A stretch of DNA of 64,000 nucleotides. Source: an uncultured Acetobacteraceae bacterium. GTDB taxonomy: Bacteria > Pseudomonadota > Alphaproteobacteria > Acetobacterales > Acetobacteraceae. This document shows positions 25,922-31,481 of the stretch, in pieces. Position numbers and translations under genes: made by a program. Location: NCBI GenBank assembly GCA_903877125.1, contig CAIRCM010000191.1:11087-75086 (forward strand). The letters run 5' to 3'. Under the pieces are notes generated by a model. That model saw nothing but the letters and a program-made list of their open reading frames with translations, had not been told where the DNA came from and did not search any database. Each line of letters opens with the position of its first letter. The stretch's first letter is position 1.

Positions 25922-27436
25922 CTATCCAGCCGCCAAAGCCGAGCATATCGGCAGGTGTTCGAAACCCGTCCTGTTCGGCGCCAGCACCCGGTGCAGCCAG
26001 CCGGCCACGCCACCGTTGACGTTCGATGCGTGATTGACCGACTTCGGGTCCACGACCTCGATCACCTGCATCATGCCTCTGTCCTCGTGCCGTAGGACAT
26101 GACAATGATACATGAAAGTGCCGACGATCTCCGGTCGGGTGAATGCCAGCCGTATCGTTATCTCGCCCCGAACCGGCACCACCGCCGTATCCAACAGACC
26201 GTTGAACGGCACCGGCTGTCCATTCAACGACATCACCTGAAAAGCCAGCTGGTGAATATGGAAAGTGTGCATATCGTCGGTGTCGTTACGGATCGTCCAG
26301 TCTTCGACATCGCCCAGATTGACGCGCGTGTCGGTCCTGCCGGCGTCGAACAAACGGCCATTGATGAAGTATTTTTCCGAGTCTTTCGATTGCGTATAGA
26401 CAAACCGCCGGTAGCCGTTGACTGACAGCCCGCTCAGATCCGTCATGTCCGGTAATTTGTATTGCACCGGTGTCGCCGGCGCGCCGGAAACGACGAAACG
26501 TCCGACGATGCGATCCTGTCGGAGCTCGGCGCCCTTGCCGGTCAAGACGTTGCGCATCGATAGTGTGTAGTCGCCGGGCGGTCCCGCCGTGACCAGCACC
26601 TCCAACCGTGCGGCCGGTGCGATATCCAGGACATCCGCCTGGTAGGCATGAGGGATAGCCGCCCCGTCGCGCCCGATCACCGTGAAGCGATGACCCCCAA
26701 GCGCCAGATGGACCGTCTCGTCAGCGTCGTGATTGGTCAGGTGCCAAACGACGGCTTCGCCTGGCCGAGCGGTTTCCACGACGGTCGTGCGGTTGTTCAC
26801 CGTTTGCACGACCCCATGCCATTGTTCGTTGACGACTGGATTGTCGCTGTCTTCGATCTCCACCGATCTGAACGCGAGCAAACGTTCGCGCACATGCTCA
26901 AGTCCTGGAATGCCGGCAGTGAAGCCCTCGATCATCAGCGCGCCGCTCAGCCCTCGTCCGACCTGTCTCTCGGCAAGCCCGTGCTCGTGCGCATGGTACC
27001 AGTAGGCGCCCGGCGGTTGGTGCGGTGGGATCTTGATCTCGTAGTCGAAATCGGCTCCGCCGGGGACCGAGATATGCACGTTGTCGCCATGGCCCAGAGG
27101 CGAACCCTGCATGCCGTGGAAATGCAGATTGGTCGGTTCGTTTAACCGGTTGGCCAACCGGATGCGCATCGTATCGCCCGGTCGGGCCCGCAAGACAGGA
27201 CCGGAAAATGACCCGTTGTAGCCATAGGTATCGACCGAAACCCCGTCGAAGACCGTCGTGCCCTGCCGGACTTCAAGCGTCGCTGCCAAAATCCCGTTTT
27301 GCGACACGATCTCGGGCATGTCGCTGATTGCGGCCGGCGGATCGGCGGCGAGCGCCACGACCATATGCCCCGGTTGCGCCAGCACGAGTCCCAGAAGGAC
27401 CGCGGCGATGGCGGCGAGCCACGAAAAGCGCCTCAT
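25922..27436 (-). CDS. Exported three-domain multicopper oxidase
   Basis: All four copper motifs: NLHFHG, YWYHAH, HTFHIH and [14 protein letters not shown]; signal peptide [11 protein letters not shown] overlaps the MCP stop. Confidence 0.92.
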
Positions 27437-29322
27437 GCCGCTGTCGCCAACTGGCTCGGCGCCAGTTGCTCCAGCCAACGGTCCCACGCAGCCTGCCCCT
27501 CACCCGAAAGATCGAGGTGCAGGCGGAGCAGATCGCCCTCGTTCGCGACCATGGTGAACGCCATCGGATTGATCCCCCGAATATGCAGAGTGCCTTTTTC
27601 GCCGCTTTGTAACGATGATGAATCCAGCCGGATCAGCGCTGCCCCCTGTCGAGACACGTTCCGTGTTTCCGCCCGTATACGCTGTCGATCCGTTATGATC
27701 TCGCAAGGCATGCGACAGTCGATGCGTGGCGATTCCCGCCGGTCGAACTGGGTGGTCGAACCACGAATGGTGCGCACCACCACTTGCTGCAACGCACGTA
27801 CCTGATCCCCCACCTGGATCGATGCGTCGTTGACCAGAGTAGCCACCGTGCCCGCGTCGCGCGCGATATCGTGGACCCCGCTGATTTCCCGGGCCACCAG
27901 ACGCGTCGCGCCCGTCAGATCGGACAGGCTGGCCGCGATCTCGCGCGTCGCCCGGTCCTGATGGGATACATGGTCGGAAACCACCCGAGCCACATCCTCG
28001 GCCTCGGTCAGGCGTAAGCCGACCCCGGCAATGGCCTGCTGTGTCAGACCAACCAAATCCTGCACCTCCGCCAGGATGGAGGCGATGTCGGTCGTCGAGC
28101 GTGCCGTTTGTGCGGCCAGGCTTTTCACCTCGCTGGCCACCACCGCGAAGCCTTTGCCAGCCTCTCCAGCCCGTGCGGCCTCGATCGTGGCGTTCAGTGC
28201 CAACAGATTGGTCTGCCGGGCGATCGACCCGATGATCCCCGCGGCCTCGGCAATGCGGTTGGCCGCCGCCGTCAACCGGCCGATGGCACTGGTGGCGTCG
28301 CTGCCCGCCGACACGGCACGACGGGTGATGTCGGTCGATTGCGTGACGCTGACCGCGATCACCCGCATCGAGTCAGCGATGCGTTCCGCGACCCCAACGG
28401 CGGTTTCGCTGTCGCCCAGCGCGCTGTCCGCCTGCGTGCGGACGATGTCCGACGTCTGGAGCAGACGTTCCACCTGATCGGCCAAAGTCTTCGCCTGGAT
28501 CGACATATCCGCCATCCGCGACGCAGCCGTCTCCACCGCCTGTCCGATTTCGTGTTCGACGCGATCGGCCATGATCCGCAACGCCTCCGTCATTTGGCGC
28601 TTGGCTTTGGCGTCGTTCGCACGCTCCTGTTCCCGCATCGCTGCGATTTCATCCAAATTGCCGGCGATGGCGTTCTGCATCGTGCCAAGCGCCCGCAGCA
28701 GGCGCGCCGGCTCGTCCCGCCCCCGCGCTCGGATCGGGTTATCGAGCCTGCCACCGGCAATCGCGTCGGCGATGGCGGCGGCCTGCCGGATCGGCGGTAT
28801 CACCGCGCGCCACAAGACCAGCCCAATGCATGCCACAACGCCAATCACCGCGACGTCGATGCCACGTAGCCAGTCCCGGCTGGTATCGACCATGTCCTCC
28901 GCCGCGTCCCGGGCGTCGAGGCCGTCGGCGTCGAAGCGCTTCACCGCGGCGGCCAGCGCCTCGTCGACCGCGGTTCGCTGTTCGGTCGTGGCGGCACTTC
29001 CGGCGGCGCGCAAGGCCTGAAGCCGCCCGGCCACGGTGTCCGCTGCCGCCCGGGCCCGGTCGCTCGCCGCTCGCTCGCGTGCGATGCCCAGATAGTCCCG
29101 AACCTTGTCGAGCAGCGCCGCATTCTTTTCGGGAGCGAATTCGTAACGGATAAAATCGGCCTGTGCCTTGGCGATATGGCTCACCCCCACCACTCCGCTG
29201 TCGTATATGCCGATCGCGGTAGCGCCCAGGTTTCGTTGTAGCTGCCAGGCGAAGACTCCGCCGCAGGCGGGCGCGAGGATCAACACAAGGCAGGCCACCA
29301 GCAATTTCGTCTTCAAGCTCAT
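27433..29322 (-). CDS. Methyl-accepting chemotaxis protein with HAMP and C-terminal PilZ domain
   Basis: Two TMs around a periplasmic helical domain, HAMP, MCP core [34 protein letters not shown], and PilZ motifs RRESPR and NVSRQGA. Confidence 0.92.
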
Positions 29323-29331
29323 GGCAGTGGC

Positions 29332-29652
29332 CTACTTCACGACGACGGTCATTTTCATTTTCGGATGGATACTGCAGCGGATGGTGAATTTTCCCGCTTT
29401 GTCGAACAGCTGATCGATCGTATCCCCCGGCTTCTGGAGGCCTTTGTCGATCGCGTTCTCGTCCGCGTCGATCACGTTGATATTGTGGGTGACGTCGTCG
29501 TGGTTGACGAAATGCACCGTGTCGCCGGCGCCGACCGCCAACGCTGTTTGGCTGAATTTTTGCCCGACCTGATCGACTTCGCTCGCGGCGGCGAAACAGA
29601 CTCCGCCAGCCAAAAGCAAAGTGGCCGGCGTCACGATCCAGATATTTCGCAT
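29332..29652 (-). CDS. Periplasmic cupredoxin (amicyanin/plastocyanin-like, type-1 copper)
   Basis: Signal peptide, HNI and RCSIHPKM (Cys, His, Met ligands); AAGGAG RBS. Confidence 0.88.
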   Translation of the reverse strand: MRNIWIVTPATLLLAGGVCFAAASEVDQVGQKFSQTALAVGAGDTVHFVNHDDVTHNINVIDADENAIDKGLQKPGDTIDQLFDKAGKFTIRCSIHPKMKMTVVVK

Positions 29653-29676
29653 TGGGTTGTACTCCTTGTTTTGTTA

Positions 29677-31014
29677 TTAGAAACGAAACGCTGTCCAAAG
29701 GCTGACGAACAGCGCATTGTTGTCCGACGCATGGTTGCTGGAGCCGTTGAACTGCGTGTAGGCGACGTATTGAACCGCCAGACGGATGTTCCCCGACTTC
29801 CAGGTGGAATCCGGTTTGCCCCAGGGAACGAACGCGATCTCGCCGATGAAGCCGGCACTGTTGGGCACCGGGGCGGGCAGCCCGAAATACTGCGGATTCG
29901 CCACCCCCGATGTCTGAAAATACTGTACCGACGGGGTCCAGGTCGCGCCGATGCTGTACGAAACGTCCGCACGAACGGTATCGAGATTGCCGTTCCGGTT
30001 CGCCCCAATCAAAACATTGCTGGCCGACAGACGCTGGTCTTCGTGGATCCAGGTTGCATGCGCCGAGATCACGTCGCTCTCGACGCGCTTGGTATCGAAT
30101 ATCAATTGATAATTCGCGTCGAACGCAATGTCCGTGAAGCTGTCGGTGCGGCCTGCGCTCCCGTCGCCGCCAGGATACAGGCTCACATGCAGACCGTAGG
30201 TCCCAATCTGGACATTCTGCCGATCCCCGTCGAAGCTTCGTTGCAGCGCCAAACGCCAATAGGGGATCGGCCCTACCGGCGTGTTGCTCCCGGCCAGCGG
30301 CACCTGACCTATATCGTTGCGGGTATCGCGGCTCAGCCCCCCATAAAGCGCGACATGCAGATAGAACATGTCATCCAGCAGGGTATAGGCGCCCGCCCCG
30401 GCCACATTATGGGCCAGCGCGCCGTCGATCAGCGTCGCGGCCAGCGGTGTCGGCGCCAGCTTGCTGCTGTTATAGGGAAACCCCCAGATCGGCGTAGAAT
30501 TCCATAAATCCTCGACCGTCGGCGCATTGTTGACAGTGACTCCCCAGACCAGATCGTGGTCCCAGAGAGTCCCGTCCTTCGCATAGCGGATATCCGCGTT
30601 GTCCAGCCCCGCCGTCCGTGAGACCCCGTCATAGGTAATCTGGATGAACGAACCGAGGTTCGGCGCCCACCGTCCAGCTAGATAGATCGACCCTTGATCG
30701 AGCGCCGGATTGTCGTTCGCCGCGAACCAGCGCGCCGCGCCGCCGGGTTGCGCGGCATTGGTGTGGGTGAACGAGGTCTGGATCGTCGCGGCGATTGGCG
30801 GGCCATGCGGTTTGCCGTCGGTCGACGCATAACCATAAAGCTTGAAATCCCGCCCGAAGGGCTTCAGTTGCGGCCCGAACGCGCCGACATGGCAGGCGGC
30901 GCAGGGTTGCCCGGTCTGGTCCGCGAAACTCGGCACCGCGCCCGCGTCGCCGACCGTGCCGCACAGCAATGCGATGGCGGCGCAGACAGCTGTCAGCGAT
31001 TGGGAAACCCTCAT
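29677..31014 (-). CDS. Cyc2-like outer-membrane monoheme cytochrome c fused to a beta-barrel porin
   Basis: Signal peptide, then VPSFADQTGQPCAACH..PQLKPFGRDFKLYGY (one CxxCH), amphipathic beta-strand-rich remainder, terminal aromatic residues (WTAFRF); GAGGAG RBS. Confidence 0.8.
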   Translation of the reverse strand: MRVSQSLTAVCAAIALLCGTVGDAGAVPSFADQTGQPCAACHVGAFGPQLKPFGRDFKLYGYASTDGKPHGPPIAATIQTSFTHTNAAQPGGAARWFAANDNPALDQGSIYLAGRWAPNLGSFIQITYDGVSRTAGLDNADIRYAKDGTLWDHDLVWGVTVNNAPTVEDLWNSTPIWGFPYNSSKLAPTPLAATLIDGALAHNVAGAGAYTLLDDMFYLHVALYGGLSRDTRNDIGQVPLAGSNTPVGPIPYWRLALQRSFDGDRQNVQIGTYGLHVSLYPGGDGSAGRTDSFTDIAFDANYQLIFDTKRVESDVISAHATWIHEDQRLSASNVLIGANRNGNLDTVRADVSYSIGATWTPSVQYFQTSGVANPQYFGLPAPVPNSAGFIGEIAFVPWGKPDSTWKSGNIRLAVQYVAYTQFNGSSNHASDNNALFVSLWTAFRF

Positions 31015-31157
31015 GCGTCACTCCTCGACCAAGGCGGCAGACCGAGTGTGACGAACAGTTATGAATAAAAAGTTAACAAAACCGACCTCGGACGCTTTTT
31101 TTTCCGCGATCCCCAGCCCGGCGTGACCCCCCAATACTCCTCTCTTGTAAATCACAA

Positions 31158-31176
31158 GTGATGTATAATATATCAC
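31158..31176 (+). promoter_or_regulatory. Imperfect palindrome overlapping TATAAT, probable XRE operator
   Basis: GTGATGTATAATATATCAC ends 5 nt before the XRE start; TTGT-N5-ACAA is adjacent at 31145-31157. Confidence 0.5.
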
Positions 31177-31181
31177 TCCTC

Positions 31182-31481
31182 ATGCTCACGCCCGCCCAGC
31201 TTCGCGCCGCACGAGCCCTCCTCGGGCTCGACCAACGCACCCTCGCGGAGCGCGCCGGTGTCTCCCTGCCGACGATCCAACGGATGGAAGCCAGCGACGG
31301 CTACGTCCGCGGTGTCGTCGAAACCCTGACCCGCGTCGTCGCCGCGCTGGAGCGGGAAGGTATCGAGCTGATCAGCGAAAACACGGTCAGCGCCAGCGGC
31401 GGACGCGGCGTTCGCCTGCGCGACCCCACGCCACCTAATCTGCGCCAAACATCATCGCACCACCTGGAAGGTGCCTCATAG
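31182..31481 (+). CDS. XRE-family helix-turn-helix transcriptional regulator
   Basis: MLTPAQLRAARALLGLDQRTLAERAGVSLPTIQRME...GGRGVRL. Confidence 0.9.
   Translation: MLTPAQLRAARALLGLDQRTLAERAGVSLPTIQRMEASDGYVRGVVETLTRVVAALEREGIELISENTVSASGGRGVRLRDPTPPNLRQTSSHHLEGAS

Follow-up and report, generated by a model that had tools for sequence, protein, structure and literature searches.

A conserved operon for a Cyc2-like haem-porin, a cupredoxin, a chemoreceptor and a multicopper oxidase in an uncultured Acetobacteraceae bacterium: a candidate redox-sensing system

The operon and its four products

We analyzed a 64,000-nt stretch of DNA from an uncultured Acetobacteraceae bacterium (assembly GCA_903877125.1, contig CAIRCM010000191.1, positions 11,087 to 75,086 of the forward strand; hereafter, the window), focusing on an operon of four minus-strand genes that may serve to sense iron or redox conditions outside the cell. 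In the order of transcription, these genes encode a Cyc2-like fused cytochrome-porin (29677..31014), an exported, amicyanin-like type-1 cupredoxin (29332..29652), a chemoreceptor of the methyl-accepting chemotaxis protein (MCP) type (27433..29322), and a three-domain multicopper oxidase (MCO; 25922..27436). An initial annotation, made from the letters alone, had described spacings of 24 bp, 9 bp, and an ATGA overlap, with good ribosome-binding motifs ahead of the first two genes. Coordinates and sequence agree with this description: the MCP stop codon overlaps the MCO start by 4 bp, and GAGGAG and AAGGAG lie 6-8 nt 5′ of the start codons of the cyc2-like and cupredoxin genes. The MCO start used here is the ATG at 27436, giving MRRFSW, while the open reading frame (ORF) program had chosen the GTG at 27487; the homologue at locus L001 has the same 4-bp MCP/MCO overlap, which backs the ATG. 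As for the products, the N-terminal peptide quoted at the time, AVPSFADQTGQPCAACHVGAFGPQLKPFGRDFKLYGY, is present in the first protein with its single CXXCH, and the exported type-1 copper protein, MCP, and MCO with all copper sites were recovered as PF00127, HAMP/MCPsignal, and four copper motifs, respectively.

The first protein (445 aa) begins with a signal peptide, MRVSQSLTAVCAAIALLCGTVGDAGA, followed by CAACH at residues 38-42 (30889..30903, minus strand, by sequence reading), its sole CXXCH and one haem c site. The context of this site, AVPSFADQTGQPCAACHVGAFGPQL, has AVPSFADQT before CAACH and VGAFGPQL after it. No Pfam or NCBIfam family matched the protein. Cyc2 itself has been defined by AXPXFAR[Q/K][T/Y] before CXXCH and PXL after it, with PXFAR[Q/K][T/Y] as the filter for tree building (Keffer 2021, PMC8406198). 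In the 39 homologues of the window protein, C38, C41, H42, P48, Q49, and L50 are invariant, and PXL is present as an invariant PQL, five residues (VGAFG) past CXXCH. The position equivalent to the motif Arg is E, Q, A, G, or D in these homologues, the rest of the motif being invariant, and E, Q, A, V, I, G, or D across the Cyc2-like clade described below. The Cyc2 N-terminal pattern proposed in the initial annotation therefore stands only in part: CXXCH, PXL, and full-length homology are there, but the strict motif fails, its Arg having become Asp.

With 445 aa and ~16 predicted strands, the protein also has the length (at least 365 aa) and the ~16-strand C-terminal porin of Cyc2. Its AlphaFold2 model showed ~16 strands (pLDDT 76), the haem region being poorly modelled because there is no haem in the model. 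Foldseek matches of this model were outer-membrane porins, including OprO (4rjw) and OprP (2o4v), both named as structural relatives of Cyc2 by Keffer et al. (PMC8406198), and the β-barrel anticipated by the initial annotation is thus predicted. A HMMER search of 1.84 billion representatives (50% clustering) returned 2040 relatives at E ≤ 0.001, which grade unbroken into proteins with the canonical PSFARQTG..C..CH T.FPELTPFGR.FK; the matches to these canonical-motif proteins are full-length, with E values of 1e-50 to 1e-85. Proteins of Ferrovum-labelled metagenome-assembled genomes (MAGs) are 44-48% identical to the window protein. Its sequence makes the first protein a homologue of Cyc2-type cytochrome-porins; we place it in a divergent clade of Cyc2-like cytochrome-porins and do not take it to be a proven Cyc2. 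It shares with the Cyc2 of A. ferrooxidans, Cyc2PV-1 of Mariprofundus, and Cyt572 of Leptospirillum a signal peptide, a single N-terminal CXXCH with AxPxFA.QT three residues ahead of it and PQL after it, more than 365 aa, and a ~16-strand OprO/OprP-like porin. In contrast to these, the window clade lacks the motif Arg, has two extra residues between CXXCH and PQL (VGAFGPQL vs T.FPEL) and a strongly conserved barrel, and the window gene sits in an apparent Acetobacteraceae organotroph, next to a cupredoxin gene and not cyc1.

The cupredoxin (106 aa) matched PF00127 with 35.8 bits, over the cut-off, and in the PDB its closest sequences are those of amicyanin and of a NirK cupredoxin domain. Aligned to amicyanin, it shows the H..C-x2-H-x2-M arrangement of a classical electron-transfer type-1 site, the ligands being His (THN) and Cys-x2-His-x2-Met (CSIHPKM). 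These type-1 copper ligands are kept in 69/70 cupredoxin relatives. Every NCBIfam equivalog scored far under its cut-off, so the protein is not amicyanin, plastocyanin, or pseudoazurin proper.

Pfam recognizes HAMP, MCPsignal, and PilZ domains in the chemoreceptor (629 aa) and no sensor family above threshold. In an AlphaFold2 model of residues 1-240 (pLDDT 89), a first transmembrane (TM) helix, a periplasmic four-helix bundle (4HB), a second TM helix, and HAMP follow each other, with alignments placing the sensor domain at about residues 27-150 (28873..29244, minus strand). The nearest structure to this N-terminal part was the NarQ sensor-TM-HAMP fragment 5jgp (TM-score 0.59). Nitrate sensing, as raised by this match, was dropped, the match being to the general 4HB-TM-HAMP shape; the conserved residues of the window sensor are unlike the ligand box of NarX/NarQ. 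Throughout the sensor loci, the bundle keeps a signature of Y-D in helix 1, E-R in helix 2, and D-G-x-x-x-R in helix 4, and the 4HB alignments show no conserved His, Cys, or Met. By these sequence features, the periplasmic 4HB is a distinct sensor family.

At the other end of the receptor, the PilZ domain (PF07238; 27436..27744, minus strand) has the motifs RRESPR and NVSRQG intact for a c-di-GMP binding signature. The full architecture of PilZ-bearing chemoreceptors is present, that is, a TM sensor, HAMP, MCP, and a C-terminal PilZ with RxxxR and [D/N]xSxxG. The receptor thereby resembles Tlp1 of Azospirillum brasilense (PMC3604760), Aer (PMC6406031), and Cbp1 of Azorhizobium (PMC6454048), TM MCPs with HAMP, a C-terminal PilZ, and a periplasmic sensor. 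The likeness to Tlp1 extends to intact RRxxxR and NxSxxG motifs with equal spacing, the distance from RRxxxR to N being that of R562, R563, R567, and N589 (PMC3604760). Unlike these PilZ chemoreceptors, the window receptor is embedded in a redox-protein operon. The 4HB sensor gave no tblastn match on any PLSDB replicon, Azospirillum chromids included, the Tlp1 sequence itself lying outside this comparison. A direct link to Tlp1 was dropped, the Azospirillum and Niveispirillum MCP-PilZ genes examined being without a cupredoxin neighbour. In the window genome (5.15 Mb in 231 contigs), cheA and cheW lie on another contig, flagellar genes are present, and there are seven MCP-like matches. In one metagenome contig (L003:10074-11965), two ORFs of 279 and 358 aa take the place of the single receptor gene, perhaps through a frameshift or faulty assembly; the receptor is intact in other contigs with the same genes.

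The MCO (504 aa) has the Pfam domains Cu-oxidase_3, Cu-oxidase, and Cu-oxidase_2 and a twin-arginine-like signal. All four copper motifs are present in its translation: HFH, HAH, HTFHIH, and a fourth of the HCHxxxHxxxxM type. In the PDB, its closest match by sequence is the laccase 2xu9 of Thermus thermophilus (E 8.5e-57), with CueO far weaker (~1e-35). CueO is also the best NCBIfam match (NF008205), yet at 156.5 bits against a cut-off of 525, such that the protein falls outside CueO/PcoA. The MCO resembles the Thermus laccase and CueO in its three cupredoxin domains, four copper motifs, Met axial ligand, and twin-arginine-type signal. It differs from them in having no Met-rich insert (no Met-rich segment was found in its sequence), in ~40 extra C-terminal residues, and in the distribution of its orthologues, detailed below.

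Upstream of the operon, an intergenic region (31015..31157) serves as the presumed promoter region and is common to a divergent gene for a small HTH_3/XRE-family regulator (31158..31481, plus strand; Pfam HTH_3). This is a possible local regulator whose membership is uncertain: an HTH_3/XRE gene adjoins the operon in the closest relatives, L001 and L002, only. A promoter scan found no match to the sigma-70 consensus in 31015..31157. A hairpin resembling a terminator, with a T-rich run, lies at 29688-29715 (minus strand), within the last codons of the Cyc2-like gene and 5′ of the cupredoxin ribosome-binding site; as read from the sequence, it could reduce downstream gene expression. Terminator-like sites in the operon region are no commoner than chance. 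The genes around the operon are MetE-like, MFS, SulP, and pheST.

Conservation of the gene cluster

Co-occurrence in other genomes, to which the initial annotation had tied its proposal, was found across many genomes by tree, tblastn, and class-level sampling. The four-gene set recurs at 89% identity in two metagenome contigs, and in a relative at 71% identity a Cyc2-like/cupredoxin pair precedes another set with all four genes. For a broader view, the four window proteins were compared by tblastn with 80 genome loci that had been found with a Cyc2-like alignment. At loci of ≥55% identity (n=23), the cupredoxin lies downstream in 22, and the sensor domain is present in 19 and the MCO in 14. 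These counts were 11, 2, and 4 at 45-55% identity (n=22) and 3, 0, and 2 below 45% (n=25). A hidden Markov model (HMM) search found the sensor in at least 25/35 loci.

On a maximum-likelihood tree, the window falls inside a Cyc2-like clade of 39 loci (support 100/99). The cupredoxin is directly downstream in 35 of these and nearby in three of the remaining four; mapped as a label, its downstream position needs 5 changes on the tree vs 26 when shuffled. Clade members come from Acetobacteraceae, Rhodopila, Xanthobacteraceae, Caulobacterales, Steroidobacteraceae, Telmatospirillum, and four Ferrovum-labelled MAGs, and the best-matching named relatives are Acetobacteraceae MAGs of boreal lakes, peat, and soil. 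The cassette itself is conserved in Acetobacteraceae, Caulobacterales, Xanthobacteraceae, Telmatospirillum, and Ferrovum-labelled MAGs. In the sister clade (Rhizomicrobium, with FARQT), no cupredoxin gene lies downstream. Long metagenome scaffolds yielded further three- or four-gene sets, as did one unrelated family in the class-level sample (L111). Given this recurrence in dozens of unrelated contigs, the gene arrangement is far beyond chance. Beyond the four families, and antisense artefacts aside, no gene family occurs in more than 6/35 loci, and none is of copper homeostasis.

The distribution of the MCO ties it to the Cyc2-like protein. Among 151 Acetobacteraceae genomes, MCO orthologues (E<1e-100) occur in four (G000, G140, G004, and G124), all of them among the six with a clade-type Cyc2-like gene. 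When the query genome is left out, 3/3 MCO genomes fall inside 5/150 (hypergeometric p ~2e-5), and the MCO sits in the cluster where contigs allow this to be seen (G140:C24 and G124:C60). Since its orthologues are confined to clade-carrying genomes, a restriction that sets it apart from the Thermus laccase and CueO, the MCO goes with the Cyc2-like protein and not with the sensor.

Some loci deserve separate mention. The Ferrovum-labelled L049, L051, L056, and L059, from a lineage of iron oxidizers, are all clade members; two of these loci have the Cyc2-like gene, cupredoxin, and cytochrome c, the other two the Cyc2-like gene, two cupredoxins, a convergent MCO, and an MCP fragment upstream. Cluster 2 Cyc2 has been reported for all Ferrovaceae MAGs (PMC13390463). 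Contigs L010 and L022, labelled Solirubrobacterales (Actinomycetota) and Buchnera, carry the Acetobacteraceae-type cassette and are probably mis-binned or mislabelled MAG contigs.

Cyc2-like genes have been noted in Acidiphilium, Hyphomicrobiales, Burkholderiales, and others (PMC10654088; PMC8406198). Plasmid records hold relatives in Acidiphilium, Ralstonia, Caballeronia, Methylocystis, and Polymorphobacter, whose annotations say no more than hypothetical or cytochrome c. The Cyc2-like gene on CP084173.1 (recorded as an Acidithiobacillus ferrooxidans plasmid) has the same score, identity, and query span as NC_009469.1, pACRY03 of Acidiphilium cryptum; the identical values suggest a shared plasmid or a mixed culture. 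The window genome itself has a second Cyc2-like gene (C77:6217-8446, L085; 41% identity, motif PSFASQTGQPCTACH), directly after a monohaem cytochrome c gene and beside flgC, fliE, fliR, and flhB. A c-type cytochrome adjoins other Cyc2-like branches, namely, this paralogue, Acidiphilium pACRY03, and Polymorphobacter, which fits a role of the neighbour gene as small periplasmic electron acceptor. A strict swap of cupredoxin for cytochrome c was only partly true, with a small CXXCH ORF nearby in 4/19 deep-clade and 0/7 sister-clade loci.

Pairing of the cupredoxin with the sensor

Within the cassette, the periplasmic domain and HAMP of the third gene stay constant, and its output varies between MCP-PilZ, MCP alone, and PAS-GGDEF-EAL. 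The GGDEF-EAL neighbours of Xanthobacteraceae type also bear the 4HB domain by HMM. We sampled loci by the sensor alone, in two sets. In the 151 Acetobacteraceae genomes, full-length sensor matches occur in ~19, only six genomes having the clade-type Cyc2-like gene. Among 20 flanks, the cupredoxin is directly upstream of the sensor in L091-L098, L100, L101, L103, and L108; L099 has a weak cupredoxin match and L107 an apparent cupredoxin remnant. Counted by locus, ~13/19 in this family have the cupredoxin in that position. Most Acetobacteraceae genomes with the cupredoxin-sensor pair have no Cyc2-like gene at all. Similarly, an evenly drawn set of 301 Alphaproteobacteria gave 19 sensor loci in 15 genomes of ~11 other families, with the cupredoxin directly upstream in 11 of these loci and within 2 kb in 2 more. 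Here, the outputs are HisKA-HATPase, hybrid HK-REC-Hpt, and nucleotide cyclase. The window genome has 3 cupredoxin matches only in its 5.15 Mb, so the adjacency of cupredoxin and sensor is not chance. These sequence comparisons point to two conserved pairs, Cyc2-like/cupredoxin and cupredoxin/sensor, joined by the cupredoxin as a putative hub.

As a chemoreceptor, a cyclase, or a diguanylate cyclase regulates no transcription, it makes more sense to see the cupredoxin as a partner of the sensor than as a target under its control. The initial annotation had suggested that the receptor could sense the cupredoxin or the substrate; the former, rather than the latter, has strong comparative support, from genomic context only.

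The front end changes as well. In 8/21 cupredoxin-sensor loci without a Cyc2-like gene, the operon starts with DUF3034 (PF11231; L095:5250-6577, L098:5701-7016, L093, L096, L097, L100, L101, and L115), probably an outer-membrane barrel given its signal peptide and C-terminal GF. In four loci, DUF3034 is followed by an exported truncated globin (PF01152, with signal peptide), exported globins being unusual in themselves. This repeated set of barrel, haem protein, cupredoxin, and sensor favours redox or oxygen sensing over copper sensing. The idea that DUF3034 is a haem-less relative of the Cyc2-like barrel was rejected (hhalign probability 0.5%).

Two loci show unusual joints. At L107:5778-6209 (G018:C81), a short ORF directly upstream of the sensor gene fuses a piece like the Cyc2 N-terminus to one like the cupredoxin C-terminus; its sequence resembles a deletion scar left when the barrel was lost. 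At L115:4829-6979, cupredoxin and sensor histidine kinase share one stop-to-stop reading frame and may be fused.

Sensors that work through an accessory extracytoplasmic protein have precedents in TorT-TorS and LuxP-LuxQ. Another, and the nearest in concept, is HbpS-SenS-SenR of Streptomyces, where a small secreted protein encoded beside a membrane sensor is proposed to bring it its signal, HbpS being a redox-sensitive metalloprotein (PMC4991794). The window system differs from all three in that the accessory protein is a type-1 copper protein, the sensor belongs to a separate 4HB family, and the cupredoxin-4HB pair feeds chemotaxis, c-di-GMP, two-component, and cyclase outputs. We propose, at somewhat less than an even chance, that cupredoxin and 4HB form a general, previously unrecognized extracytoplasmic redox-sensing pair, with a blue-copper signal carrier and interchangeable front ends and outputs across Alphaproteobacteria, which in this operon would give iron/oxygen redox taxis driven from outside the cell.

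A possible extracytoplasmic redox circuit

Our preferred reading, to which we assign a probability of about 0.5, is that the one conserved operon specifies an extracytoplasmic redox circuit read by its chemoreceptor, in which electrons would pass from a reductant, probably Fe(II), through haem-porin, cupredoxin, and MCO to O2. The Cyc2-like haem-porin would take electrons from an extracellular reductant, most likely dissolved or organically complexed Fe(II). It is the Cyc2 homology and the clade's presence in Ferrovum-labelled MAGs, and no other ground, that make Fe(II) the likeliest donor; in such habitats, the donor could also be Fe(II) in organic complexes or reduced humics. The haem c of the porin would reduce the periplasmic cupredoxin, which the Tat-exported MCO would re-oxidize with O2 via its type-1 site, or else the MCO would act on the same substrate. 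The steady state of the cupredoxin, i.e., its reduced fraction, would then report the balance of reductant and oxygen. The receptor 4HB would bind or read the cupredoxin and bias swimming through the CheA/CheW encoded elsewhere in the genome. Amicyanin-type proteins have potentials of about +250 to +300 mV, type-1 sites of bacterial MCOs of about +400 to +500 mV, and O2/H2O of +820 mV. With ~+208 mV for Cyc2PV-1 (PMC8406198), the path would run downhill. In addition, the PilZ domain might add a c-di-GMP input, as in Tlp1 (PMC3604760). The electron-transfer steps, the substrate, and the reading of redox state rather than copper loading by the sensor are all inferred.

Several observations weigh against this scheme. 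The published Arg of PXFAR[Q/K][T/Y] is absent (FADQT, Arg to Asp), even if all remaining motif positions match, and the barrel is ~58% identical across families, in contrast to the poor conservation reported for Cyc2 barrels; with the Arg lost and the barrel so unusually conserved, the substrate may differ. The 4HB sensor conserves no redox or metal ligand by which reduced and oxidized cupredoxin could readily be told apart. Most cupredoxin-sensor pairs have neither a Cyc2-like gene nor an MCO; they must have some other input, and the Cyc2-like protein is not needed for sensing generally. Even within the clade, L019 and L132 have Cyc2-like gene, cupredoxin, and MCO but no sensor, and L009 and L013 have Cyc2-like gene and cupredoxin alone. 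Every carrier found is a MAG or a metagenome contig. Finally, oxidation of a cupredoxin by a three-domain MCO is, to our knowledge, not a well-established reaction.

One rival account is plain respiratory or detoxifying Fe(II) oxidation. Here, the cupredoxin would pass electrons to a terminal oxidase, the MCO would be an extra periplasmic ferroxidase, and the receptor would sense Fe(II), Fe(III), or another small ligand directly, the cupredoxin being no ligand of it. The model for such a system is the rus operon of Acidithiobacillus (cyc2-cyc1-cup-coxBACD-rus), in which Cyc2 electrons pass through rusticyanin. The window operon shares with it an outer-membrane Cyc2-type haem protein encoded with a periplasmic cupredoxin, and with that the logic of an outside donor feeding a copper protein. 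It differs from the rus type in having no cytochrome c4 or aa3 oxidase, in a cupredoxin that is amicyanin-like and not rusticyanin, and in the MCO and chemoreceptor that stand in place of the respiratory genes. Three characterized Cyc2 family members do oxidize Fe(II) (PMC8406198), to which the window protein's homology lends weight, as do the clade's Ferrovum-labelled MAGs, two of them with cytochrome c next, and the loci where the MCO accompanies Cyc2-like gene and cupredoxin without a sensor; moreover, the sensor's conserved Tyr, Asp, Glu, and Arg could bind an ion. Against it, there are no cyc1, cox, or bc1 genes in the cassette, the window organism looks like an organotroph of the Acetobacteraceae, and the cupredoxin-sensor pair persists without a Cyc2-like gene, although a direct iron sensor needs no cupredoxin neighbour. 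We consider this account unlikely, if still a serious one. We find it improbable that the operon serves copper sensing or homeostasis, with the sensor reading the apo or holo state of the cupredoxin, the MCO as a CueO-like cuprous oxidase, and the haem-porin handling copper or supplying electrons. Such a reading could appeal to CueO as the best NCBIfam match of the MCO. An outer-membrane barrel with a small cupredoxin-fold protein and an MCO also recalls CopB/CopC/CopA, and in Pseudomonas putida the cupredoxin gene cinA lies beside the copper-responsive cinRS. However, the CueO score is 156 bits against 525, with the Thermus laccase as nearest solved relative; the MCO has no Met-rich segment and the sensor no conserved His, Cys, or Met. 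Furthermore, the type-1 site is of the classical electron-transfer kind, the recurrent companions are haem proteins (Cyc2-like, globin), and no copper ATPase, Cus, CopCD, or CueR family is recurrent in the 35 cassette or 21 sensor loci, nor any copper-export or chaperone family in the 35 cassette loci.

That the MCO is the main catalyst, acting on Mn(II), phenolics, or reduced humics, with cupredoxin and haem-porin as electron route and the receptor steering cells to substrates, would suit a laccase-like enzyme and carriers which, by their record titles, come from peat, bog, humic-lake, and soil metagenomes. Yet, of the four parts, the MCO varies most in its presence (14/23 close loci), it is absent from most cupredoxin-sensor pairs, and nothing ties the haem-porin to organic substrates, which makes this reading quite improbable. 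We give very little credence to the notion that adjacency is meaningless, receptor and MCO merely lying beside a Cyc2-like/cupredoxin pair: the gene order holds in several families and classes and comes with translational coupling, and the linkage statistics from the clade tree, the MCO distribution, and the sensor-only loci speak against it.

Each part of the operon is of a known kind. What is undescribed is the four-part combination and, most of all, the pairing of cupredoxin and sensor, in which both outputs and front ends can be exchanged. A full-text literature search found no paper linking a cupredoxin to a chemoreceptor or other sensor, nor any describing DUF3034. The cassette bears on how bacteria locate the narrow zones where Fe(II) meets oxygen. 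Cyc2 is so far not known to be linked to any receptor that senses extracellular iron or redox state; Cyc2 as a possible iron sensor has been raised as speculation only, in one iron-oxidizer study (PMC11429942). Cyc2-like genes are also common in bacteria not known to oxidize iron (PMC8406198), and the cassette bears on their role there. It provides a specific link, open to testing, between an outer-membrane haem protein and behaviour and points to a new sensor domain family with its partner cupredoxin encoded alongside. If confirmed, the pairing of cupredoxin and sensor would account for many of the orphan receptors, diguanylate cyclases, and kinases that Alphaproteobacteria of soil, peat, and lakes encode, and would offer a marker for redox-guided behaviour in metagenomes.

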